Positions 1,905-13,182 of a stretch of 13,754 bases of DNA are shown here, piece by piece. A program made the translations under genes and the position numbers. The stretch comes from a virus (lineage: Duplodnaviria; Heunggongvirae; Uroviricota; Caudoviricetes). Location of the stretch: IMG/VR virus record IMGVR_UViG_2534682222_000011; one strand, written 5' to 3'. Every line of letters begins with the position of its first letter. Positions within the stretch are counted from its first letter, which is position 1. Below the pieces are notes generated by a model. That model did not search any database, was not told the DNA's origin, and was given only the letters and a program-made list of their open reading frames with translations.

Positions 1905-2537
1905 ATGGCACACAATGCGCTTATCTATTGCCGCGCCAGTACATCAGAGCAACACGCAGACCGGGCGCTGGGCTTGCTGCGAGAGTTCGCCAGTGATCGG
2001 GGCTGGCCTGTACGGGCGGAGTACATCGAGAACGCCAGCGGTGCGAGGCTGGCGCGTCCTGAACTAATGCGCTTGCTGGATGATGCGCAGGCCGGAGAGG
2101 TCTTGCTTGTCGAGAGCATCGACAGGCTAAGCCGCCTTACGCAAAAGGAATGGGCGACACTGAAACAGAGGATTCAGGATAAGGGACTGGTGATCGTTGC
2201 CGTTGACCTGCCAACCTCATGGCAACTACTGAACGATACGGCGTCAGAGCTTACAGAGGGCATCCTGAGAGCTGTTAACGCAATGCTGATTGATATCCTC
2301 GCTACGATGGCACGAGTGGACTACGAGACACGCAGAGCACGCCAAGCGCAGGGCATCAAGCGTGCCAAAGCCGAGGGGAAATATAACGGGAAGTCTAAGG
2401 ATGAGAGCGCCCGTGAAACTGTCCGCGCTATGCTTACCGTTGGGAATAAACCAGAGCACATCATGAAAGCTGCCGGGATAAGCCGGGCAACGTTCTACCG
2501 TATCAAACGTGAGCTGTCCGCCAGCGTTACAGAGTGA
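1905..2537 (+). CDS. serine recombinase, resolvase/invertase family (210 aa)
   Basis: N-terminal catalytic motif LIYCRASTSEQ (Y-x-R-x-S-T-x-x-Q, presumed nucleophile Ser), SG...R...GEVLLVESIDRLSR core, and C-terminal helix-turn-helix (ISRATFYRIKRE), as in small serine recombinases. Purine-rich SD-like GGGGGAAG precedes the ATG. Confidence 0.9.
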   Translation: MAHNALIYCRASTSEQHADRALGLLREFASDRGWPVRAEYIENASGARLARPELMRLLDDAQAGEVLLVESIDRLSRLTQKEWATLKQRIQDKGLVIVAVDLPTSWQLLNDTASELTEGILRAVNAMLIDILATMARVDYETRRARQAQGIKRAKAEGKYNGKSKDESARETVRAMLTVGNKPEHIMKAAGISRATFYRIKRELSASVTE

Positions 2538-2953
2538 TGACCTACAGTCTGATGAGATGCCAGCACTGGCCGTTACTGGGCTGTGGGTGATGGATGGCCT
2601 ACAGCTTTTGTATTGATATCAGATATTTATGTTATGCCTAATCTCGTAATGGTATGATTTATAATGTATTTCCGTATTACTTGCGGCTCTTGATATGAAG
2701 AGATGGCGGGGCTTTAGCCGTGCCAGACGATGAGTATCAAGATCAGATTGTGAATGTGATTTATCACTGAACAATTCGAGGGATGGGGCAGGGGAAGGGA
2801 TCAAAGGCTGTGTTGTCCAATCACTCAGCTAGATTTGAAGCAGGGCAACACCTTCGTTTTACCTTTAAAGTTGCATTTAAAATACATGTACAGAAAAGGG
2901 TTCTTCCCTTTCATCCCTTCTCCTAATCAGTGTTATCGCTTTTCGCTCTACAC

Positions 2954-3023
2954 TGGCTGCGCTTCTCGCTATGCTCCAGCCCGCTCCATCGCCTTTGGCT
3001 CATTCCCGGCCTTCGCCCGCTGT
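2954..3023 (+). repeat. scrambled tRNA-Gly 3'-half-like fragments (possible decayed att scar / left junction)
   Basis: Contains GCTCTACA, CCCGCTCCA, ATTCCC and a 12-nt exact match CCTTCGCCCGCT to the tRNA-derived att at 13224-13251, same orientation but out of order. Confidence 0.3.
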
Positions 3024-3080
3024 GATGCTCGGCCCTCCACGCAACCGTGCTTGCCAGGCAGTCAACGCGGCGGGGATAGA

Positions 3081-3113
3081 GTAGTGGTACGGTACTATAT
3101 TGGGATATGGTAC
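3081..3113 (+). repeat. GGTAC direct repeats (candidate integrase arm-type sites)
   Basis: GGTAC at 3086-3090, 3091-3095 and 3109-3113. The reverse-complement motif ([C/G]TACC) is clustered at 13152-13182 next to the integrase start. Confidence 0.25.
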
Positions 3114-3288
3114 TCACAATGCCGCTTATAACCCCTTACATCCCAGCATCCCAACAAACCTACTGAAAGTTATCAGCAAATCATTCATCAAGTCAGACAG
3201 GGCAAGGCTTACAAAGGTGTTGATTAAAAAATAATCAAATTAGAGTTTCTACTGTGGCAAAACGAACACCACTCGCTTGTGCATACGT

Positions 3289-3354
3289 AGTGACCTACAT
3301 GAAAGTCACTACTAAAGAGGGACAGAACATTCAACGTCACTGCTGACATGAAAT
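3289..3354 (+). promoter_or_regulatory. operator-like repeats upstream of helicase gene
   Basis: Dyad AGTGAC-N10-GTCACT (3289-3310) and direct repeat ACATGAAA (3297-3304 and 3347-3354), in the non-coding leader 75-140 bp upstream of the 3428 start. Confidence 0.3.
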
Positions 3355-3427
3355 TCTCTCTACGGGCAGCTCGGCGCTGCCGTCCTGCGCCTCGTTCTAA
3401 ACTCACCTTAATTTTGGAGATTTCACC

Positions 3428-5272
3428 ATGCCAACGAACCTACGCCGTTTGCTTGCGCAGGCTGCCGACGCTGACCCGCTCAATACCGCAAACGCAGATG
3501 TACAGCAAATGGTCGCTGACGGGATTGTTATTCGGCGTTCCAAGATATGCCCGATAAAGCATAAACCCGTTAAGGCGGCATACAACACGAAGACCGAAGA
3601 GTTTTATTACAATGCTGATGGCTCCGCTATGACCCTGCGGGAATGGCGAGCGCTGCATGGTGTTCAACCGAAGAAGCAAAAACAGCGCTCTGACACGGGG
3701 TTGCGGCAAGTCATCCAGCCCGGTGACGCAATTCATTGCCGACGCGCTGAGATAGAAATGTGGCTCAACAAGAAGCCTGCTCGGTATGCTGACCCGCTGC
3801 CGCCTGATTTTCCCGGTGTTCGCGTAGATGATGCCGCATTGAAACCGCGCGAGCACGCCGTTTCGGCATCGACAACCGGGCAGAATGCTTTTCTCAAAGC
3901 CTGCCGCGAGTTCCTGATTTGTGATGAGAAGACTATACACCGCATCAACAGGGGCATGAATAAACTGGAAGCGATGCGCAATTCAGATTTCAAACGCTAC
4001 GGGGACTCAGCGGAGTTTCGTCAATTGTGGTGTGGAGAGTCGAAACCTACCGAGGATAAATTTAACAGTACAAATCATCATTGTGACCCAAACGGCTTGG
4101 CAGTGTCGCCGTCTGTGCCGTCACTGAATACAGCCTCTTATGAGTTTCGCCCGCTGGTTCGCTGTGACCGAAACGCACGCGTTAGCCTGTTGCCACCCGA
4201 TGGGCTGGAGTGGAGGCCGGGGCAGTTGTCTGTTGCTGATGCGATCTTCTCCCGTGGTAGTGATGTGCTGGCCGTTCTGCCTACGGGTTATGGCAAGACC
4301 GCCGCCTTCGCTTATCCATTGATTTATGAGTCCCGCGCTGGCGTTGGCCTGTCTGTAATCGTGGTTCCCACTAATACCCTAAAGCGCCAGATTCTCCGCC
4401 AGTTGCGGGATGCTGGCGTTCACGCTGTGGCATTCGGTGACAAGTTGCCGAGGCACCGCAACGCTCAACAACTCGCGGGGCTGGCTGCCGGGGCGTTCCG
4501 TGTTGCTGTCGTTTCACCTGAGCATCTTGTTCTGTCGAGTCAGGTCTTCGCGGCGCTGATGGCTTACGGCGTTGATCGTTTTATCATCGACGAAGCGCAC
4601 ACGGTTAAAGACTGGGATTTCCGACCCGCTTACGAGGCCATGCAGCACTCGCTACAACATGCCTTTCTTTCGGCTCAACGCTGCGTATTTACGGCTACGC
4701 TGCTACGCGAAAATGAGCGCAGTTTAATGGCGTCGCTTGGCTGCCGTGGTGATTACGTAACATTCCGTGCTGATGTTGCTCGCGAAAATATCCAGTTGAC
4801 GACAGTCAGACAGTGCCGCGAACGTTTCCGAGCGGCTATTGGTCTGGTCGAGGCTCTGCCGAAAGAAGAGAAGACGCTCATTCTCGTCAATGACCTTAAG
4901 ACGTTGCGGGCGTACCTGAAACTCTTAGGCGACCGGGCGCGCCCATATCACTCGAAGACGATGCACTTGAGTAACGAAGAACGCCACGCAAACGCTGAGT
5001 GGTTTGCCACTACGCCGGGCGCAATTCTGATTGCTACTAAAGCCTTCGGGCTGGGGGCTGATGTGCCAGACATTCGCAACGTCATCGTTACATATATTCC
5101 TGATGACCTGCCTGACCTCATTCAGATGATTGGACGAGCCGGGCGCGATGGTCAACCTGCCCGCGCGTTTCTGCTGTGGTCATCGCTGGCGCTGGATGCT
5201 GCGCCTGATGAGCTTGCTTACTTCTACCGCCCTGAAAACTGCAACTGGCAGTACATCGCTAAATACCTCTGA
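3428..5272 (+). CDS. SF2 DEAH-box helicase, RecQ-like core, with ~270-aa N-terminal extension (614 aa)
   Basis: Helicase motifs in order: LPTGYGKT (I/Walker A), VVPTNTL (Ia), IIDEAH (II), FTATL (III), LIATKAFGLGADV (V), QMIGRAGRDGQ (VI, RecQ-type). N-terminal part has an excisionase/AlpA-like winged-helix signature (TLREWRALHGV ... GDAIHCRRAEIEMWL). GGAG RBS 10 nt upstream of the ATG. Confidence 0.9.
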   Translation: MPTNLRRLLAQAADADPLNTANADVQQMVADGIVIRRSKICPIKHKPVKAAYNTKTEEFYYNADGSAMTLREWRALHGVQPKKQKQRSDTGLRQVIQPGDAIHCRRAEIEMWLNKKPARYADPLPPDFPGVRVDDAALKPREHAVSASTTGQNAFLKACREFLICDEKTIHRINRGMNKLEAMRNSDFKRYGDSAEFRQLWCGESKPTEDKFNSTNHHCDPNGLAVSPSVPSLNTASYEFRPLVRCDRNARVSLLPPDGLEWRPGQLSVADAIFSRGSDVLAVLPTGYGKTAAFAYPLIYESRAGVGLSVIVVPTNTLKRQILRQLRDAGVHAVAFGDKLPRHRNAQQLAGLAAGAFRVAVVSPEHLVLSSQVFAALMAYGVDRFIIDEAHTVKDWDFRPAYEAMQHSLQHAFLSAQRCVFTATLLRENERSLMASLGCRGDYVTFRADVARENIQLTTVRQCRERFRAAIGLVEALPKEEKTLILVNDLKTLRAYLKLLGDRARPYHSKTMHLSNEERHANAEWFATTPGAILIATKAFGLGADVPDIRNVIVTYIPDDLPDLIQMIGRAGRDGQPARAFLLWSSLALDAAPDELAYFYRPENCNWQYIAKYL

Positions 5273-5310
5273 GTCGAAAGGCTCCCCCTCATTCTCTGGA
5301 GTTAATCCAT

Positions 5311-5748
5311 ATGCCTGTTACCGAACATGCGCAGCGTCGTGCTACGCGTGCGGATGCGCTCGTCACCGCACAACTTGCCTTCGCCCTGAACGGATATTCC
5401 TTCGATGGGTTAGCTGAGCGCCACCGCCAGACTCTTAATCGTGCGGCCATCTTGCGCCAAGCTGGTACGCCGCTACAGCGGTATTGCCTGCTCAATCACT
5501 GTGAGCCTTGGGAATGTCTGGCCGCTGTGCTGAATAGATTCCGACGCCGGGAGGATGGCGCTCGTCTTTGGCCGACCTATCGCATGGCTCGTGAGGTCTT
5601 TAATGGGACTGTTCACCCTGCCAACAAGACGCGCGACGAGATATTTCAATCTGTGCAGCGTCGCCTCTTTTTACCAAAACCAGTACACGCCGAAGTAATC
5701 CAGTACCTGCGCGTAATGGGGCTGACAGGAGTTAATCCGCATGACTAA
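5311..5748 (+). CDS. hypothetical protein (145 aa)
   Basis: ORF with GGAG RBS about 10 nt upstream; first in a chain of overlapping, translationally coupled ORFs. Confidence 0.6.
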   Translation: MPVTEHAQRRATRADALVTAQLAFALNGYSFDGLAERHRQTLNRAAILRQAGTPLQRYCLLNHCEPWECLAAVLNRFRRREDGARLWPTYRMAREVFNGTVHPANKTRDEIFQSVQRRLFLPKPVHAEVIQYLRVMGLTGVNPHD

Positions 5749-5947
5749 AACCGAGTTTGAAAATGAAACGTGGCGAATGAAAGGCTTGCTTCTTGGGGCG
5801 CTAATCCGCCGCCTTGAGGAAGACAAGGCTGGTGAGTCGCGCATGGCCGCAGCGGAGTTATCCAGTGCGGTCAACTTCCTTAAGGCCAATGCCGTAGAAG
5901 CGCCGGACACGTCATTTAACCGTGTATTTGAGGATGACGAGCAATGA
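5741..5947 (+). CDS. hypothetical protein (68 aa)
   Basis: Start overlaps the end of the upstream ORF by 8 nt; GGAG RBS with the same spacing as the upstream gene; acidic C-terminus. Confidence 0.5.
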   Translation: MTKTEFENETWRMKGLLLGALIRRLEEDKAGESRMAAAELSSAVNFLKANAVEAPDTSFNRVFEDDEQ

Positions 5948-6120
5948 CACCCGCAGAGTTTAGAGCATGGTTTGCAACCCTGCCGCCGAACTATCAGAGC
6001 GCAGCACGAGCCATGTATGAAAGCGCCCGCAAGACGGGAACACACACCGCTTCCAGCCTGCTACTCATTCGCACGCTGATTGAAGATCAAATCAATTTCG
6101 ATGGAGACTTTACCTTATGA
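5944..6120 (+). CDS. hypothetical protein (58 aa), not in supplied ORF track
   Basis: Hand-translated: ATG at 5944 overlaps the upstream TGA (ATGA); uninterrupted to TGA at 6118-6120, which overlaps the next ATG at 6117 (ATGA). Fits the coupled-operon pattern. Confidence 0.4.
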   Translation: MTPAEFRAWFATLPPNYQSAARAMYESARKTGTHTASSLLLIRTLIEDQINFDGDFTL

Positions 6121-6680
6121 CAGTTCTGAGCCTGACCGATATCCAGCGCATCAATACCCTCGTTAAGCGCGACCTTCGCAATGTGGAAGAGGTAGTCGCT
6201 GCAACCGGATTTGACCCGGAGGACGTTGACGCGGTGCTGCGCGGCGTTTATGTAGCCGACCTTGCCAACCAGTGGAGGGATGAAGCCGCTATTACGCTGG
6301 AGGAATACAACGCCATCCGTAAGCGCTGGAAACCGGGGCGCGGCCACTGGGACACTGCACATGCCATTGCACGCGATTTTCTAATTCGGCCTGAAACTGT
6401 GCTGGCTATCGTCCATTCCCGCTTTAGCAACGCCCACACCCACCCGATGCCGAAAGCAGTTAAAGCAAAGCCTGAGAAACCGCAGACGATGCGCCGCCTG
6501 TTGAGCGCCGACCTCGATCAGATGCACAAGCTGGAGCGCTTCGGCTGGAAACAAACCGAGATCGCTGGGGAGCTTGGGATCTCTGCTGAGGCTGTTGCTC
6601 ATGTCCTGCGCCTGATGCGTAGCAAGTGGTCTTATCCAGATATTTTGGAAGACGTTAACACGCGATTCGGGGCTAAGTGA
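6117..6680 (+). CDS. hypothetical DNA-binding protein with C-terminal HTH (187 aa)
   Basis: C-terminal segment WKQTEIAGELGISAEAVAHVLRLM resembles a helix-turn-helix; start overlaps upstream stop. Confidence 0.65.
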   Translation: MTVLSLTDIQRINTLVKRDLRNVEEVVAATGFDPEDVDAVLRGVYVADLANQWRDEAAITLEEYNAIRKRWKPGRGHWDTAHAIARDFLIRPETVLAIVHSRFSNAHTHPMPKAVKAKPEKPQTMRRLLSADLDQMHKLERFGWKQTEIAGELGISAEAVAHVLRLMRSKWSYPDILEDVNTRFGAK

Positions 6681-6913
6681 TGGCAGAGAACGAACCGCTG
6701 CACCCTGCCGTTAACCCTGATCTCTATGTGAACCTTGACGAACAGCGCGAGGGATACGCCCCGTTTGAATCACGCGGCTGGGATGTGCTGACACAGAACC
6801 TGTCCGGGGAAGGGCGAACTGATCCCGGCCAAGCACCAAACCAGAATCCAAGGCAGCGACCGCGTGGCTCCGTTGGCGAGCGACGTTGGTTGCGTCGTCA
6901 TGGCCTTATCTAA
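6680..6913 (+). CDS. hypothetical protein (77 aa)
   Basis: ATG at 6680 overlaps the upstream TGA (TGATG); the ORF track's GTG at 6677 is less likely. Basic, Pro/Arg-rich C-terminus. Confidence 0.45.
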   Translation: MAENEPLHPAVNPDLYVNLDEQREGYAPFESRGWDVLTQNLSGEGRTDPGQAPNQNPRQRPRGSVGERRWLRRHGLI

Positions 6914-6927
6914 CTGAGGATTATTTC

Positions 6928-7167
6928 ATGAGCACCATTATTTTAATGGAGCCACGCCGCGCGGCTGATTGCGGGCAACAACTGAAATTCATTGCCGAAG
7001 CCTTGAATCTTCGTCAAATCGATTTGGCTCATGTGTACCAGATCGACAGACAAGATCTCGGCAAAGCGTACCACGGACAGAAGATGATTCCTGCCCGATG
7101 CGTACACGCGCACATGCTTTTACTTGAACTGGCACATCGCCGAGTTACATCACAAGAGGTTGCATAA
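6928..7167 (+). CDS. hypothetical protein (79 aa), possible small HTH regulator
   Basis: ATG at 6928 with GAGGA RBS 7 nt upstream, preferred over the TTG at 6886. Segment LNLRQIDLAHVYQIDRQDLGK is HTH-like. Confidence 0.45.
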   Translation: MSTIILMEPRRAADCGQQLKFIAEALNLRQIDLAHVYQIDRQDLGKAYHGQKMIPARCVHAHMLLLELAHRRVTSQEVA

Positions 7168-7169
7168 TC

Positions 7170-7856
7170 ATGGCTGACCAGAATGTTAATCCGTACCTTT
7201 CGGGCGCTGATACTGCGCCGCAGCAATCGCCGTACATGGCCGCACCTGTAGGCGCTGACAACGGCGCTAGCAGATTCGACCAGACAACACCTGATGCTGA
7301 TTTCCTGAAAACGCAGCCAGCGAACATTAATCAAAGCTGGAACGAAAGTAACTTTGCCAACCAGCAAGACCAGCAGATTGATGTTGCTGCGCAAGTGGGC
7401 GACACGCTGCAATTACAGGATGGCACTACTGTTGAGTTGACTCCTGAACTTCATGGGCTGATGGGGCAGTTTCACCAGTCTGTCGAAAGCCAGCTAGGGC
7501 AGGGGACAGTTGACGCGATGTTGCAGTACGCTGGCACGCTCGACGCCGGGACGCAATCAACCCTTGAACGGATGGTTATGTCTGGCGACCCTGCGCAGAT
7601 GCAGCGGGCGGTTCATTATCTGCAAGAGCGTATGGTCGCAGGCACTGCGACTGGTTATGTCCCATCACAGGGGAACCCATACGGCCAGCCTGCCTCGCAA
7701 CCTGTTGGTATGTCTCATGCTGAGTTTATTGCAGCGTATGATCAGCTTTCGCAGTGGGCGCAGCAATCAGGGTATGGCCCCGGCCATCGCCAGTACGACG
7801 ATCAATACCGCGCTCTGGTTGCGCAGCGCTCCGCTGGCAAACGCGCTGGCCGTTAA
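7170..7856 (+). CDS. hypothetical Gln/Ala-rich acidic protein (228 aa)
   Basis: AAGAGG RBS 10 nt upstream of ATG. Q-rich, acidic, low-complexity composition of the kind seen in scaffold or decoration-type proteins, but no diagnostic motif. Confidence 0.65.
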   Translation: MADQNVNPYLSGADTAPQQSPYMAAPVGADNGASRFDQTTPDADFLKTQPANINQSWNESNFANQQDQQIDVAAQVGDTLQLQDGTTVELTPELHGLMGQFHQSVESQLGQGTVDAMLQYAGTLDAGTQSTLERMVMSGDPAQMQRAVHYLQERMVAGTATGYVPSQGNPYGQPASQPVGMSHAEFIAAYDQLSQWAQQSGYGPGHRQYDDQYRALVAQRSAGKRAGR

Positions 7857-7916
7857 GCAATCGCCTGTCCTGTCTTCCCCACGTCTTAACCTTACGTTTT
7901 AGAGCCTGAATCGCGT

Positions 7917-7936
7917 TGTACATCGCCAGATGTACA
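7917..7936. promoter_or_regulatory. TGTACA-N8-TGTACA palindromic repeat pair (candidate activator/operator site)
   Basis: TGTACATCGCCAGATGTACA lies in the 160-bp intergenic gap between the 228-aa and 115-aa genes. Confidence 0.3.
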
Positions 7937-8015
7937 TTCGTATACCTGCACCTGTAAAACGCGAAATTACCTCTCAAACACCACACATAAACCCACTTTG
8001 CATTGAGATCTGACA

Positions 8016-8363
8016 ATGACCTTACTGACACCTGAAAACGTGGCAGCGGCTAGGGCTGCCCGTAGCGCGAGGATTGAACACTGGAAAGCCAACGCCAGCC
8101 AGCTTAAGCAGGACTTTGCTGACGAAGCGCACTGGCGGCGGCTCGCCTCACGCTTCGGCGTGCGTATGCCCTCGGCGTATGTTCCCGGCTCCGAGCTGCG
8201 ATTGCTGCGCCGGGCGGCCAAACGCGCGGGCATCTCTGGTGCTGATATGCGCGATGCTTTTGGTGGGGGCGTTGCGCACCTGCACGAGCTTAATCCCCAT
8301 TGGCCTGCCTTCGCGCTTATCGGCCTGATTCTTGAGATCGCGGCTGAAAAAGCTGCTGCCTGA
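8016..8363 (+). CDS. hypothetical protein (115 aa)
   Basis: ORF after an intergenic gap; Ala/Arg-rich; weak RBS. No recognisable motif. Confidence 0.55.
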   Translation: MTLLTPENVAAARAARSARIEHWKANASQLKQDFADEAHWRRLASRFGVRMPSAYVPGSELRLLRRAAKRAGISGADMRDAFGGGVAHLHELNPHWPAFALIGLILEIAAEKAAA

Positions 8364-8431
8364 TTCATCCCATTCTCTTTTCCCCTTTTCCATAAATCGC
8401 GCTGGCTAACGCTGGCGCGGGAGCTATTTCT

Positions 8432-9427
8432 ATGACTGACAATGTTTATACCCCTGACCAATTCCGCCCGCACTGGGGCGGTGTAGATGCTGACAACGAC
8501 ATTCACATTGAAGCGTATGACCGGGACGTTCAGACCCGCCTTGAGGCAAAGAGCGTGTTTCTCGCCGAGGGGCTGAGCACATACAAGCCGCTGAAAAACA
8601 GTAATCAGTATCGTGTAGACCGCCTGAGCGGAGATCTGGAGGTGAAGGGCAGAACCGCAGGGCAATCGCTGGAGCCTACCGCCGTTAAGTCGGACAAGCT
8701 GATTATCTCTGTGGATACGCTGAGCTATATCCGCATCCCGATTGACTATCAAGACGACTGGACAGCGCCCACCTTTCGCGCAGAGCTGAGCCGCAACATG
8801 GGGACAGCCCATGCAAAGTTCTACGACGAAGCGCACACTATCCAGCTAATCAAAGCGACTGACTTTGTACCGCCGCCTACGTTGCAACCAACGTTTAACC
8901 CGCTGACGGATAATGTTGTCTCGCTCGACCTGACAACGGGGAGCGAAGAGGATGCGGCTAACGAACTGGTTCACGCTATTAAAGCTGCTGTTAATCGATT
9001 CCTAACTGAAAAAGATATTCCGGTGGCGGAGCTGTGCCTTCTCATCGACCCAGCTTGGTTCAGCATCCTGATGGAACATAAGAAGTTGATGAACGTCCGT
9101 TACAGCCGGGATAGTGGCAATGATTACGCATGGCGTCGCGTTGGCTATGTCGCTGGGGTGCGAGTTATTGAGCTGAACAGTTACCCGCAGGAAGCCATTA
9201 CCGCGCATGAACTGGGCGCTGATTATGATGTGACCGCAGGGGAAGCGCTGACACGGGCGACGCTGTTCCGGCCTGCGTCTGTACTTGTGACAGTCGAAGC
9301 GCAGAGCGTTATCAATCGCCAGTGGGATGATGAACGCGAAATGACAATGGTGATGGACTCATATCGCCTGTTCAATGTTGGGCTGCGCCGCCCTGACTGC
9401 GTTATAAATTTCCGACAAGCTGCATAA
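8432..9427 (+). CDS. hypothetical protein (331 aa), possibly structural/morphogenetic
   Basis: GGGAG RBS 8 nt upstream of ATG. Largest protein of the late-region-like block; no catalytic motif seen; role inferred from context only. Confidence 0.7.
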   Translation: MTDNVYTPDQFRPHWGGVDADNDIHIEAYDRDVQTRLEAKSVFLAEGLSTYKPLKNSNQYRVDRLSGDLEVKGRTAGQSLEPTAVKSDKLIISVDTLSYIRIPIDYQDDWTAPTFRAELSRNMGTAHAKFYDEAHTIQLIKATDFVPPPTLQPTFNPLTDNVVSLDLTTGSEEDAANELVHAIKAAVNRFLTEKDIPVAELCLLIDPAWFSILMEHKKLMNVRYSRDSGNDYAWRRVGYVAGVRVIELNSYPQEAITAHELGADYDVTAGEALTRATLFRPASVLVTVEAQSVINRQWDDEREMTMVMDSYRLFNVGLRRPDCVINFRQAA

Positions 9428-9443
9428 CAAAAGGGGCCGAGCC

Positions 9444-9971
9444 ATGAATATTGATGCTTATGCCCCGGAGCTGTTGCGCTCTTTGTTTCGGTACGATGCG
9501 AAGACTGGCCGCCTGTTCCATGCAGTAGACCGGATCGGAGCCAACAAGCGGATTTACGCTAAAGCCGGGGAACTGGCCGACACGGTAACGGACAGCGCCG
9601 GATATAGGCGCGTATCTGTCCGCATCAATGGCAAATCTCATGCGCTATACGCCCACCGTGTCGCCTTCATCATTGCTAATGACGGTATCCCTGCCGGGAT
9701 GCAAATCGACCATATCAACGCGGTACGCGATGACAACCGCCTTATCAATCTCCGCACGGTTACGCCACAAGAGAACCAGCACAATTACCGCAAAGCCAAG
9801 GGTTATAGCCACCATGCCTGCTCTGGCAGATGGGAGGCTTACATTCGCGTTGGTGGTGTTCGCCATCACCTCGGCTTATTCACTACCGAAGCGGCGGCGC
9901 GTGCTGCGTACCTGAAAGCTAAAGCCAGATACCATCCGTCAACGCCAGCCGATTTATTGCAGGCTGCCTAA
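9444..9971 (+). CDS. HNH endonuclease with C-terminal AP2-type DNA-binding domain (175 aa)
   Basis: HNH_3-like motif (YRRVSVRINGKSHALYAHRVAFIIANDGIPAGMQIDHINAVRDDNRLINLRTVTPQENQHN) followed by AP2-like GRWEAYIRVGGVRHHLGLFTTEAAARAAY. AAGGGG RBS upstream. Confidence 0.85.
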   Translation: MNIDAYAPELLRSLFRYDAKTGRLFHAVDRIGANKRIYAKAGELADTVTDSAGYRRVSVRINGKSHALYAHRVAFIIANDGIPAGMQIDHINAVRDDNRLINLRTVTPQENQHNYRKAKGYSHHACSGRWEAYIRVGGVRHHLGLFTTEAAARAAYLKAKARYHPSTPADLLQAA

Positions 9972-9989
9972 TCCTCGGAGGTTCCATTA

Positions 9990-10415
9990 ATGGCTGATGA
10001 AAAGCCGATTAGAGCGCTGGCAGATGATGACCCGCGCCGCCAGCGGTACGCTGAACTGTTGGCGCAGGCTGGCCGCATGACTATTCCACGGCTGCATCCG
10101 GGCGATGCTAACAGTGTTATGAGTCAGCTTGCGACAATGCTCGGAGCACCTGTCCCGATAGTAGGTGCTATGACTGAGCACGCCGCTGCATGGCGTGCCT
10201 GTCTTCTGGAGCAAGGGCTTGGTGATCTTCTGGATGGCTTGAGTAAGCAGGTGCTGACCATCTTCTTTCTGCTCTGCTGGAGAGACAGCGCCTTGCGATT
10301 GGCGGGTAAGCAAAAGGAACGGTTTGCAGCGGCCAGCGAGGGTTTGACCATTGAGCAATACCGGGCAATGCACCCGGCTTACAGAGAGGATAAAGAAAAT
10401 GATAACCACGATTAA
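9990..10415 (+). CDS. hypothetical protein (141 aa); position suggests a small-terminase-like or packaging-redirection protein
   Basis: Strong GGAGG RBS 8 nt upstream. Functional guess rests only on its place directly downstream of the HNH endonuclease. Confidence 0.6.
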   Translation: MADEKPIRALADDDPRRQRYAELLAQAGRMTIPRLHPGDANSVMSQLATMLGAPVPIVGAMTEHAAAWRACLLEQGLGDLLDGLSKQVLTIFFLLCWRDSALRLAGKQKERFAAASEGLTIEQYRAMHPAYREDKENDNHD

Positions 10416-10698
10416 ATTAAGGTGGCGGTACATCGAGCCGCCACCAATGACTGGCGCACTCGCTGACCTGAAACAGTGGGTAATGGATACCGGAGAGCCT
10501 GAGCTTGAAGCTAAATTTCGTAAGCTGCTGGGGCTGATGCGCCGCAATGGTATCAGTGACGAACGTGTTAATGCGATGGCCGCCGAGCTTTATGCTCTGG
10601 TATGCCAACGCCAGCGCGAAGAATACGAAGCCTGCAAACGGGCTGCATCTGACAGTGGAGGCTTTGAATCATGGTTACACGGACAGACCAACTACTAA
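10399..10698 (+). CDS. hypothetical protein (99 aa)
   Basis: ATG at 10399 preceded by GAGAGGA RBS and overlapping the upstream stop region; preferred over the in-frame ATG at 10351, which lies 65 nt inside the upstream gene. Confidence 0.55.
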   Translation: MITTIKLRWRYIEPPPMTGALADLKQWVMDTGEPELEAKFRKLLGLMRRNGISDERVNAMAAELYALVCQRQREEYEACKRAASDSGGFESWLHGQTNY

Positions 10699-11108
10699 GA
10701 AAAGCGATGCGAGGCTATCTGGAATATCTCGGCAACATGCCGCTAGCGGAACGCATTAAAAATTCTGCTGCGTTCGATGATGTGTATCACTTCCTGTTGA
10801 ATGGTTCAGGACGGCTGGAGTTGCGCCGCGCTGATGTGGCCGCTGTCCGTGTCTTCCTGTGGAATTATCAATACCGACGCTGCGCGGTGACAGCTAAGCC
10901 GCTACGCCTCGCGTCTGCTGTATTGGATCACTGTCACCGAACTGGACGTGTGCGCGCTGTGGTTCATCGTTCGGCCAATGCAGCGGAAGGTGGTTATTAT
11001 GTGGGAAATTTGTGCGGACTCTCACGAAGTAGCATGTTAAGCATGCTACCTGCCTACCGCCGACAATACAAGGGGTTGGGCGTTATTTATCCAAGACAAC
11101 ATGCGTGA
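10671..11108 (+). CDS. hypothetical protein (145 aa)
   Basis: GGAGG RBS 9 nt upstream of ATG; overlaps upstream ORF by 28 nt. Confidence 0.55.
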   Translation: MVTRTDQLLRKAMRGYLEYLGNMPLAERIKNSAAFDDVYHFLLNGSGRLELRRADVAAVRVFLWNYQYRRCAVTAKPLRLASAVLDHCHRTGRVRAVVHRSANAAEGGYYVGNLCGLSRSSMLSMLPAYRRQYKGLGVIYPRQHA

Positions 11109-11186
11109 TGAGATTATTTCTTTTATTTTCATTCGGTTATGTGTTGTTGTGGCTGCCTTGTTACTTGCCTATATTTAAAACAATTC

Positions 11187-11225
11187 TTGACGGATTGACG
11201 TAGATTGCGTAGGCTGAGCATAAAA
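11187..11225 (+). promoter_or_regulatory. putative sigma70-type promoter for the two-gene cassette
   Basis: Tandem TTGACG hexamers (11187-11192 and 11195-11200) with candidate -10 elements TAGGCT (17-bp spacer from the first) or CATAAA (18-bp spacer from the second), in an AT-rich intergenic region. Which pair is used is unresolved. Confidence 0.35.
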
Positions 11226-11309
11226 CAGTTTCCTAATATGTCTCCAAACTGAGCTTCAACTTGAGAATACTTCGTTCCTACATCTCCCTTGAAGGGGTAG
11301 GAGGATAAT

Positions 11310-11519
11310 ATGAACTTTGATATGCGTACAAACCAAAATTGTGCATCGTTTTTTAACCCAGCAACCAAGGCGTTTGTCGTCGTTGATTCGTTTGACAACT
11401 ACGAATTCGATGTGCGTGCTGGTACTTTATCACGCACTGAATTTGTAGGCACCATCACAGCTTCAAACGATGAAGAGTTGAACAAGAAATTAGCTGAGAT
11501 CACGGCTGCACACATATGA
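11310..11519 (+). CDS. hypothetical small protein (69 aa), cassette gene A
   Basis: Very strong RBS (AGGAGG, 5-nt spacer); AT-rich codon usage unlike the upstream block; stop overlaps next start (ATGA). Confidence 0.6.
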   Translation: MNFDMRTNQNCASFFNPATKAFVVVDSFDNYEFDVRAGTLSRTEFVGTITASNDEELNKKLAEITAAHI

Positions 11520-11890
11520 TAACTCAACAGCAGATTGATGATTTAGTTGCAGATATTAACGATATCTTGGAAGAAGATAGAGCCAAGCTAAAGATGTCAT
11601 TTCATTTTGCTGTTGATAGACTTAATGATCCGCGTAATAAACCTCCAATCACGTTAGCTGAGTTGAGAGTGATTTTTACAAATTTCATTGGACAACACTT
11701 GCAGACAATTCTAGGCAAAGATGAGGGATTTTCCTTCACTATCAAGTGTCAGAAATCTGGTATTGCTATACCGTGCGCTATAGAGCATGAACTTGATATC
11801 GGTGCAAAGTGGGTAGTTCAGCAAGTGATCACCATCATGCGGAATCCGCAGTTTAACGCGTATCATGGTGATGTCATCTTTGATGTTTAA
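11516..11890 (+). CDS. hypothetical protein (124 aa), cassette gene B
   Basis: Translationally coupled to gene A; followed by a canonical intrinsic terminator. Confidence 0.65.
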   Translation: MITQQQIDDLVADINDILEEDRAKLKMSFHFAVDRLNDPRNKPPITLAELRVIFTNFIGQHLQTILGKDEGFSFTIKCQKSGIAIPCAIEHELDIGAKWVVQQVITIMRNPQFNAYHGDVIFDV

Positions 11891-11893
11891 AAG

Positions 11894-11916
11894 AAAGGCG
11901 CTATAGCGCCTTTTTT
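11894..11916. terminator. rho-independent terminator, plausibly bidirectional
   Basis: Hairpin AAAGGCGC-TATA-GCGCCTTT followed by a T6 run on the plus strand; the complement reads hairpin plus TTTCTTTT. Abuts the integrase stop codon. Confidence 0.7.
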
Positions 11917-13135
11917 ATAAACACGGATAACTGACCAACTCCACATACTCCCATAGTTCTTTCATCCCTGCTCCCTTGCTATATGTCCTGAAAGCTTCCG
12001 TTTTAGCTTTTTGTTCGGTATGCCCGGTTATTGCCCCTATGCGCTGTTCTGGTACTCCTGCTCTGTCTAAGCAAGTAATAAAGTGACCACGCAGGGAGTG
12101 GAAGCATTGGCGATCTGTAGCCGCTGACAGCACGCGACGGCGTAGCCGTGTAAATGCCTGCGAGTACCACGGGCCACGCTTACCGTCGGCACGTTTAATC
12201 TTGTTCGATTGGGGGAGCAGGTATTCACCGTTGTTCTGCGCAAGGTATTTATCAACGATGCTGATTAACAGCGAGTGTATGGGGACGTGCCTTACACCCG
12301 CTTTAGTTTTAGATTTGCTGACGTAGAAGCAGCGTACCCCTTCAACTTTGATAATCTCAACTCGTTTGATGCTGGCGATTTCGTCGAGACGCATACCGGA
12401 ATACAAACCGATTATGATTACGTCTCGTATCTCGCTACCTGCCTCTTTTATTAATGCCTGTAGCTGGTGTAGTTCAAAAGGTTGATAACTTTCGTTCGTC
12501 TGGCGGGCTTCCAGATTGTGGCCGTGAAAGGGATTATCAGGGGCGATATTGTCATATTTACGCCGGGCGAAGTCATACAGCGTCCCTAAGCAGGTTAACC
12601 AGTTTTGCAGCGTCTGGCGGGAAAACTTATCTTGGTTCGCTTCCAGAAAGTCAGAGACGAGCCGCCGCCCGATTCCATTTATTGTAATGGTTGGGCGTTT
12701 TATTGAATTAGTAAATGCCGATACAGCGCGAACTGATTTACTCAGCGTGGAATAAGAGCGCCGATCTTTGTATTGCTCTGCATATTCTTTACTGACATCT
12801 GTCAATTTTGGTGATGCTGGTTTTCCCCGCTCTGCTGGAATAGTTGCGGGTGTGGTAATGCTGCTGGATACCCCCGCCAGCAAGTGAAGATCTGTTACAG
12901 CGGAATGAATCCGGGTAATGGGGTTATCCGGTTTCATCATGAGCTGTAGCTTACGGAACTCTAATAAATATTGGTCACGGAAAATGCGAGCTTGCATGAT
13001 GTCCCGTGTGCCTGTCGATTTCTTGAGCGAGCGCCGCCCGTTCCAGAGGTGGCGCATGTAGACCGGAATATAGATTTGAAAGATGAATATCCCATCTTTG
13101 TTTGCATAAAGATAAGAAGTCTTCTTGATTGGCAT
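11915..13135 (-). CDS. int: tyrosine site-specific integrase (406 aa)
   Basis: C-terminal catalytic region with HSLRGHF (box II-like) and a downstream Tyr (RTYSKG). ATG at 13135 with AAGG RBS preferred over the TTG at 13165 used by the ORF track. Adjacent to the tRNA-derived att. Confidence 0.9.
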   Translation of the reverse strand: MPIKKTSYLYANKDGIFIFQIYIPVYMRHLWNGRRSLKKSTGTRDIMQARIFRDQYLLEFRKLQLMMKPDNPITRIHSAVTDLHLLAGVSSSITTPATIPAERGKPASPKLTDVSKEYAEQYKDRRSYSTLSKSVRAVSAFTNSIKRPTITINGIGRRLVSDFLEANQDKFSRQTLQNWLTCLGTLYDFARRKYDNIAPDNPFHGHNLEARQTNESYQPFELHQLQALIKEAGSEIRDVIIIGLYSGMRLDEIASIKRVEIIKVEGVRCFYVSKSKTKAGVRHVPIHSLLISIVDKYLAQNNGEYLLPQSNKIKRADGKRGPWYSQAFTRLRRRVLSAATDRQCFHSLRGHFITCLDRAGVPEQRIGAITGHTEQKAKTEAFRTYSKGAGMKELWEYVELVSYPCL

Positions 13136-13151
13136 GGTAATTACCTTGTAA

Positions 13152-13182
13152 TCTACCGCTACCAACTACCGGGATAAGTACC
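13152..13182 (-). repeat. clustered (C/G)TACC(G/A) repeats between int start and att (candidate arm-type sites)
   Basis: CTACCG, CTACCA, CTACCG and GTACCG within 31 bp; mirror the GGTAC repeats at 3086-3113. Confidence 0.3.

Follow-up and report, generated by a model that had tools for sequence, protein, structure and literature searches.

A RecQ-like helicase with an orphan, possibly AlpA-derived N-terminus in a putative phage satellite of Enterobacteriaceae

Known phage satellites, including the P4, PICI/cfPICI, PLE and PICMI families, replicate by means of a primase-helicase, a superfamily 3 (SF3) Rep protein or a RepA-type initiator. In the initiators SaPI Rep and PLE RepA, a site-specific DNA-binding domain is found together with, or beside, a helicase function. 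A further arrangement is known from herpesviruses, in which UL9 combines a superfamily 2 (SF2) helicase with a site-specific DNA-binding domain. Here, we describe a helicase gene at positions 3,428 to 5,272 of a 13,754-nucleotide stretch of viral DNA, IMG/VR record IMGVR_UViG_2534682222_000011 (Caudoviricetes), which in its full length is called the window. The gene lies on an island that is most likely a satellite of a T7-group podophage, and its product joins a RecQ-like core to an N-terminus that is an orphan and possibly derived from AlpA. No other replication-type enzyme was recognized in the island, so the protein probably serves it as a DNA-unwinding or initiation factor of its own. The reading that we favor, with somewhat less than even confidence, is that it is a DNA-binding SF2 helicase that lets a borrowed replisome copy the island after excision.

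Judged by its sequence, the motor is intact and RecQ-like. A reading of this DNA made without database searches (the sequence-only reading) had proposed a full and ordered set of RecQ/DEAH motifs in the C-terminal part, and all motifs from 0 to VI could indeed be located: motif 0 (WRPGQ, residues 262-266), motif I or Walker A (PTGYGKT, 285-291), motif Ia (VVPTNTL, 312-318), motif II (DEAH, 388-391), the RecQ-type aromatic loop (DWDFRPAY, 395-402), motif III (FTATL, 421-425), motif V (536-548) and motif VI (QMIGRAGRDG, 566-575). The Pfam models DEAD (2.2e-22) and Helicase_C (1.7e-14) match, and among solved structures the closest are the catalytic cores of RecQ, 4tmu (E 7e-31) and 1oyw, which align with residues 261-585 only. 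Over this segment, the protein is ~30% identical to the cores of E. coli RecQ (1OYW) and Cronobacter RecQ (4TMU), sharing with them the two RecA-like lobes, motif 0, the DEAH box, the aromatic-rich loop (W..FRP.Y) and motifs III-VI. Residues K290, D388, E389, H391, Q566 and R570 are invariant in 55 family members, whose overall identities lie between 43% and 92%.

The flanks of the motor differ from those of RecQ. The protein ends 39 residues past motif VI in a tail that holds a single cysteine and whose invariant residues include W584, Y600, N606 and W607, and Pfam returned no match in the helicase to the RecQ zinc-binding (PF16124), RQC winged-helix (PF09382) or HRDC modules. Domain lists agree: members of the helicase family lack these modules, whereas more distant, true RecQ matches carry them. 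The N-terminus of the helicase is an orphan of 260 residues. The top NCBIfam models were recQ, recQ_fam and DpdF, with scores far under their curated cutoffs (146.8 vs 640.2 for TIGR01389, 136.3 vs 219.8 for TIGR00614 and 128.5 vs 550 for the DpdF model NF041063). Since these cutoffs were missed and no dpd or PsyrA neighbors were found among eight window reading frames scanned, the motor, although RecQ-like, falls outside RecQ proper, Dpd and PsyrTA. As a separate observation, one E. coli protein cluster (P0070, 1057 residues) joins half of the helicase to tail-collar and tail-fiber domains; the likely cause is a rearrangement or an error of assembly or annotation.

The limits of the gene proposed from the sequence alone proved right, with an uninterrupted frame on the plus strand behind a ribosome-binding site. 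The nearest in-frame stop on the 5' side lies at 3398, which makes the ATG at 3428 the earliest possible start. The ribosome-binding site is a good one, and main-clade relatives keep its sequence, TGGAGATTTCACCATGCC, or a close variant of it. In the E. coli sequence NZ_LR536431.1, the gene corresponds to WP_001142870.1, annotated merely as "DEAD/DEAH box helicase." The division of the protein into a RecQ-like C-terminal motor and an unusual N-terminal region is likewise real, and the string singled out in that region, GDAIHCRRAEIEMWL, was found at residues 99-113 (nucleotides 3722-3766).

The N-terminal region is specific to this family. Between the two clades its identity is 32%, and 40 alignment columns are invariant; because its conservation at the protein level spans clades so far apart, we regard it as functional. 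The sequence-only reading recognized no family there, and nothing outside the helicase's own family has emerged since. Four N-terminal fragments had no Pfam match at E<=10, with the AlpA and HTH_17 models among those searched, and residues 1-260 gave no match in a PDB sequence search. Both an exhaustive phmmer search of 1.84 billion (1.84e9) representative proteins and a profile search of a 5.8e9 database returned only fragments of the family itself. P0117 was rejected as a repeat-protein artefact. Structure prediction, which had been suggested as a check, was of too low a quality for any fold to be confirmed: the segment at residues 31-80 was modeled confidently, the remainder was of low confidence, and comparison of the N-terminal models, this segment included, gave no fold match. 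AlphaFold pLDDT is ~50 at residues 90-150, where the sole predicted helix spans 106-113. For residues 1-260, comparison with families, PDB sequences and folds, limited by the low model confidence, gave no match to a primase or nuclease catalytic fold, and the invariant columns hold no conserved Cys/His cluster and no DxD-type motif.

An AlpA-like helix-turn-helix (HTH) at residues ~90-148 of this region is nevertheless plausible. Residues 36-118 match phrog_66, a family annotated as "excisionase and transcriptional regulator" (E 0.034). For a comparison of profiles by hhalign, AlpA (PF05930) was represented by an alignment of E. coli AlpA and 24 homologues. The best local pairing placed helicase residues 100-125 (DAIHCRRAEIEMWLNKKPARYADPLP) against AlpA 17-42 (QKTGMARATIYDWLNPKSPRYDATFP), with RRAEIEMWLNKKPARY against AlpA ARATIYDWLNPKSPRY as the core of the match. 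It scored 26.1 (P 1e-3, hhalign probability 22%), and a null of 60 column-shuffled AlpA profiles reached a maximum of 21.0 (mean 12.8, sd 2.2). The extended alignment runs over helicase ~90-148 and AlpA 10-62, and the matched part of AlpA is the recognition helix and the loop that follows it, AEIEMWL pairing with the AlpA recognition helix plus WLNPKSPRY loop. The divergent clade alone selects the same register (P 0.017), carrying YLAGTPVKY or WLNGMSTDY at the place of WLNKKPARY. The excisionase- or AlpA-like signature suspected in the sequence-only reading therefore survives as a weak signal, seen with phrog_66, hhalign and the divergent clade, but the register suggested for it does not: placing AEIEMWL in the helix that ends the winged-helix domain gave a score of 7 (P 0.96), and this register was rejected. 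The likeness to AlpA (CP4-57 b2624; PF05930, a MerR-type winged HTH) consists of the pattern R..I..WLN.K..RY and an L/F-P pair. In contrast to AlpA, the helicase does not show the conserved G-W...E.EI..W of the wing and third helix, and its segment is embedded in a region of 260 residues, whereas AlpA is a stand-alone protein of 70.

Table 1. Coordinates of the helicase gene, its parts, its leader and the neighboring genes in the window.
Feature	Position	Strand	Basis or remark
Serine recombinase (resolvase type)	1905..2537	+	Conserved left neighbor of the leader
Inverted repeat TTGATTA-AAAAA-TAATCAA	3220..3238	.	Overlaps a sigma-70-like promoter match, 3208-3235
Leader direct repeats, ~30-40 nt	3234-3273 and 3294-3333	+	Cores TACTGTGG and TACTAAAG
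Ribosome-binding site GGAG	3416..3419	+	8 nt 5' of the helicase ATG
Helicase gene, 614 aa	3428..5272	+	Open reading frame, uninterrupted
N-terminal region, aa 1-260, family-specific (orphan)	3428..4207	+	Alignments, database searches
aa 31-80, beta-hairpin and helix	3518..3667	+	Sole confidently modeled N-terminal part, pLDDT 80-88
AlpA-like HTH candidate, aa 91-148	3698..3871	+	Profile-profile comparison; contains GDAIHCRRAEIEMWL
RecQ-type SF2 motor, motif 0 to motif VI (aa 262-575)	4211..5152	+	Motif order, Pfam, PDB relatives
C-terminal tail, short, conserved (aa 576-614)	5153..5269	+	Replaces the RecQ zinc, winged-helix and HRDC modules
Conserved 145-aa protein, directly 3' of helicase	5311..5748	+	No family match
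68-aa T7 gp18-like small-terminase candidate	5741..5947	+	PF11123 E 3e-4; phrog_891 E 0.004; Lidtsur gp48 E 0.008
187-aa protein with C-terminal HTH	6117..6680	+	Weak ParB-HTH/HTH_23 matches
Scaffold-like protein	7170..7856	+	phrog_1018, E 5e-5
Major capsid protein	8432..9427	+	57% identity to Bonnellvirus (Autographiviridae) capsids
HNH endonuclease	9444..9971	+	Library matches
Endonuclease VII (EndoVII)-like protein	10671..11108	+	Library matches
Tyrosine integrase, island end distal to tRNA	11915..13165	-	Library matches

Among the large genes of its operon, whose synteny is strict, the helicase gene comes first, and it occupies the same place in all 11 related loci; a six-sequence N-terminal alignment was among the queries that retrieved such loci. 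These come from five genera (E. coli, Enterobacter, Kluyvera, Kosakonia and Trabulsiella) and include the clade at 43% identity. Co-occurrence with the integrase and HNH genes, which the sequence-only reading had named as worth checking, holds in the 11 related loci examined and extends to the capsid gene; L006, an incomplete contig of 9.4 kb, ends before that gene. The order runs from the serine recombinase through the leader, the helicase, the 145-, 68- and 58-residue proteins and the 187-residue HTH protein to two small open reading frames (ORFs), the scaffold-like protein, the major capsid protein, the HNH endonuclease, two further ORFs and the EndoVII-like protein, after which come variable cargo and the tyrosine integrase. 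Small conserved ORFs at 5944-6120, 6677-6913 and 6886-7167 have no assigned function, and the ORF at 5311-5748 matched neither PsyrA nor any Pfam or PHROG family. Near-identical translation-initiation regions (GGAGTTAATCC[AG][TC]ATG) at 5298-5324 and 5728-5754 precede the ORFs that start at 5311 and 5741.

Among the 21 window ORFs scanned, none matched a primase, a polymerase, or an SF3/D5 or superfamily 4 (SF4) helicase, which agrees with the earlier statement that the element has neither a primase nor an SF3/D5 helicase; matches to a portal, tail or large terminase were also absent from the scanned ORFs. The satellite-like look that had been ascribed to the element is reinforced by its gene content, as the integrase is accompanied by capsid, scaffold-like and small-terminase-like genes and a full virion module was not found. 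An integrase with a subset of morphogenesis genes, and no full virion or replication module found, corresponds to the general make-up of a phage satellite, and the helper would most likely be a T7-group podophage. The capsid family is common to phiKMV-like, KP34-like and Friunavirus-type phages, and the capsid of Bonnellvirus Lidtsur is only 57% identical to that of the island. The three T7 gp18-type small-terminase matches of the 68-residue protein are weak and concordant, and this protein is a possible packaging-redirection factor.

Related islands measure 11-13 kb and sit at tRNA-Gly or tRNA-Leu (1905-13165 in the window; loci L002, L004, L008-L015 and L147). Of 5426 complete E. coli genomes, 60 (~1.1%) contain a single copy; one of them is that of the laboratory enteropathogenic strain E2348/69, where the island sits at tRNA-Leu. 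Variable cargo slots lie at both ends, in the window at 193-1187 and 11310-11890, where the ORFs are unannotated and two of them match PHROG families with no assigned function (phrog_14630 and phrog_14518). In relatives, the slots (7730-9627 and 20009-20482 in L002, 18889-19791 in L147) hold defense or toxin genes, namely an XcyI restriction-modification system, the YafO toxin and AbiTii. We found no description of the island or of the helicase protein in the published literature, and the island family appears to be an undescribed class in Enterobacteriaceae.

The leader that precedes the operon had been called repeat-bearing in the sequence-only reading. In the window this stands only weakly, with two direct copies of ~30 nucleotides and weaker ones whose cores lie at 3098 and 3161; the repeats are far clearer in related elements. 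Across elements, the motif of ~30 nucleotides reads TGAArGT-(3-4 nt)-TACTAAGG-aGAG...AAC, and in all related elements it occurs on the plus strand only and upstream of the helicase operon only. Locus L004 (8423-8850) has eight copies over the position weight matrix threshold (~9-11 with degenerate ones), most of them 33-41 nucleotides apart, L006 has four (3163-3391), and main-clade leaders have two to four. With a matrix built from L004 alone, copies in the leader rank at or near the top of the matches in most loci. These repeats could be iterons, regulator or operator sites, or promoters for the RNA polymerase of a helper. The motif was not found in Bonnellvirus Lidtsur, in which no repeated promoter could be recognized, and pattern scans of IMG/VR gave single chance matches only. 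A BLAST match of the motif to Pectobacterium phage PP1 proved to be a Shine-Dalgarno region.

The same leader contains an inverted repeat, which relatives keep with changed arms (e.g. CATGGTTA/TAACCATG in L010). Preservation of a palindrome despite differing arm sequences suggests an operator or hairpin under selection. A Hin-like invertible promoter switch formed by the resolvase and the leader was considered and rejected, as no flanking inverted repeats were found. The copy in NZ_LR536431.1, otherwise identical to the window, lacks 554 bp between the resolvase gene and the helicase leader (window 2484-3037); the deletion is flanked by short repeats (GGGATAAGCCGGGCAAC...) and takes away the C-terminus of the resolvase together with some of the intergenic sequence.

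The case for a helicase that serves island replication is drawn from the intact motor, the lack of any other replication gene among the ORFs scanned, the strict synteny of a core gene, the position as first gene of the operon, the HTH-like signal in a conserved N-terminus and the oriented repeats nearby. The satellite lifestyle, the site-specific binding and the replication role are all inferences. Under this proposal, infection by a helper podophage of the Autographiviridae type, or some other switching-on of the operon, would be the trigger, and the helicase would be produced first. Its family-specific N-terminus, with a degenerate AlpA-type HTH, would place it on the element's DNA, with the leader repeats as the site that first suggests itself, and the RecQ-type motor would spend ATP to open or unwind the duplex. 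A replisome not encoded by the island (the primase-helicase and polymerase of the helper, or the host's machinery) would copy the excised element, which would be packaged into capsids for which the island itself supplies the capsid and scaffold proteins. A bolder version, which we consider rather doubtful, is that these are undescribed capsid-encoding satellites of virulent Autographiviridae whose helicase is an initiator and a counterpart of UL9 on a bacterial mobile element; directed by an AlpA-derived HTH to the oriented repeats at the operon's head, it would open an origin for a hijacked phage replisome. The same HTH might then also act in excision or activation, for which the island has no recognized factor.

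Several points weigh against a replication role. To our knowledge, RecQ-type SF2 helicases have not been described as bacterial replication initiators. Helpers of the T7 group supply their own primase-helicase and origins primed by RNA polymerase, so a satellite of such a phage may need no helicase to replicate. Tandem Repeats Finder and a repeat search of the window, including 3080-3427, revealed no iteron array, and the best score of the L004-only matrix in the window (8.3 bits) was not significant against a shuffle maximum averaging 10.1. The type of leader tracks the resolvase module and not the helicase: leader and resolvase together form a module of two types, 26-34% identical, that assorts independently of the module from helicase to EndoVII, with a recombination breakpoint at ~3406-3412, about 20 nucleotides 5' of the helicase ATG. 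In the divergent clade, other genes stand between the helicase and the repeats, which are found 1.2-1.9 kb upstream of it, an arrangement that fits promoters of the operon as well as an origin. The similarity to AlpA is short and weak, with an hhalign probability of 7-22% on the whole N-terminus, and the Pfam models for AlpA (PF05930) and HTH_17 do not match this region.

A different proposal, which comes next in our estimation and is itself unlikely, is that the protein works in recombination or DNA processing and, as cellular RecQ and T4 UvsW do, unwinds forks, D-loops or R-loops. Together with the HNH and EndoVII-like nucleases, it would make or resolve branched concatemers for a T7-type terminase, or drive recombination-dependent replication, and its N-terminus would be directed at DNA structures or partner proteins and not at a sequence. 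That the motor's closest relatives are RecQ helicases agrees with this, as do the presence of both nucleases and a gp18-like small terminase in the same operon and the EndoVII and exonuclease that Bonnellvirus and other Autographiviridae encode for the same purpose. The lack of significant iterons in the window and the independent recombination of helicase and leader point the same way. However, the modules missing from this helicase (zinc, winged-helix and HRDC) are the means by which RecQ recognizes DNA structures, the N-terminal similarity, though weak, is to a family of sequence-specific HTH proteins, and a processing enzyme would leave the element still without a means of its own to start replication. 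An alternative of another kind, for which we see only a slim chance, is a regulatory protein, in which an AlpA-like activator, an Xis-type protein or another recombination directionality factor is fused to a motor that remodels the bound DNA/protein complex. AlpA is the only protein to which the N-terminus shows similarity, no separate AlpA, Xis or other excisionase gene could be recognized among the scanned ORFs, and the position of alpA in CP4-57, directly upstream of yfjI (DUF3987, primase/helicase-type), makes a fusion of the two functions plausible. The weakness of the HTH signal tells against such a regulator, any of the three small conserved ORFs of the operon could be the excisionase, and it is difficult to see why a protein that only regulates would keep an ATPase of 350 residues so strictly conserved.

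Standing between these two in likelihood, and to our mind improbable, is an effector of helper interference or defense. In this role the protein would be a RecQ-like helicase that is genotoxic or targets phages, as do RqlH/PsyrT or the helicases of Dpd-type systems, and would act against the helper or competing phages and not for replication of the element. In favor of this is a PADLOC sub-model for DpdF, PDLC02858, which matches residues 111-614 end to end (E 2.7e-268), from M111 to the end of the protein and over the full length of the model; the PADLOC PsyrT model matches the core only (residues 261-585, 5.7e-39). The defense cargo of the islands would suit such a role, and RqlH is described as genotoxic unless RqlI restrains it, in a reference cited in PMC9122126. 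The sub-model itself, however, was apparently built from the present family, with the start called at M111, and not from Dpd loci. The grounds for this are that a genuine DpdF (P0095, 832 residues) adjoins DpdG, of which there is none here, and that a PADLOC scan of eight window ORFs, including the gene directly downstream, found no Dpd or PsyrA match. PDLC02858 therefore probably mislabels this family as DpdF. Membership in Dpd was rejected on the NF041063 score and the lack of dpd neighbors among the eight ORFs, and membership in PsyrTA/RqlHI on the lack, in the same scan, of an adjoining PsyrA- or RqlI-like partner. Moreover, the gene belongs to the invariant core operon, outside the variable cargo hotspots at the island ends.

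Compared with these defense helicases, the protein shares with RqlH/PsyrT a RecQ-like motor on mobile DNA of E. coli, and differs in being part of a capsid-encoding operon with no PsyrA- or RqlI-like partner found alongside. With DpdF of the 7-deazaguanine (Dpd) modification and restriction system it shares a related SF2 core and the end-to-end PDLC02858 match, whereas genuine DpdF has ~830 residues and is followed by DpdG, and no dpd genes were found beside the present helicase. Were it an interference effector after all, it would be a RecQ-like addition to the anti-phage functions carried by satellites.

Returning to the replication role that we favor, the greatest potential lies in the element itself and in the possibility of an SF2 initiator. 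The island family, which combines a capsid, scaffold and small terminase of the T7 group, appears to be unreported and is present in ~1% of complete E. coli genomes. If the proposal is right, the island would differ from the known satellites in relying on a RecQ-type SF2 helicase and no other replication-type gene, and the protein would be a rare instance of an SF2 helicase as a site-directed initiator outside herpesviruses. The closest parallels in lifestyle are SaPI/PICI Rep and PLE RepA, each the sole replication-type gene of an integrative, phage-dependent island, with a DNA-binding part together with or beside an unwinding activity and with direct repeats nearby. Those proteins are SF3-type helicases or a RepA_N-like origin binder, whereas the present motor is of the SF2 DEAD/Helicase_C type, and family and protein searches detected no homology of the helicase to either. 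The closest parallel in architecture is UL9, which belongs to a eukaryotic virus and carries its DNA-binding domain at the C-terminus, in the reverse order, so that the likeness is functional and by analogy only; as an SF2 helicase that opens a viral origin with the help of a sequence-specific DNA-binding domain, it provides the functional precedent for the role suggested here.

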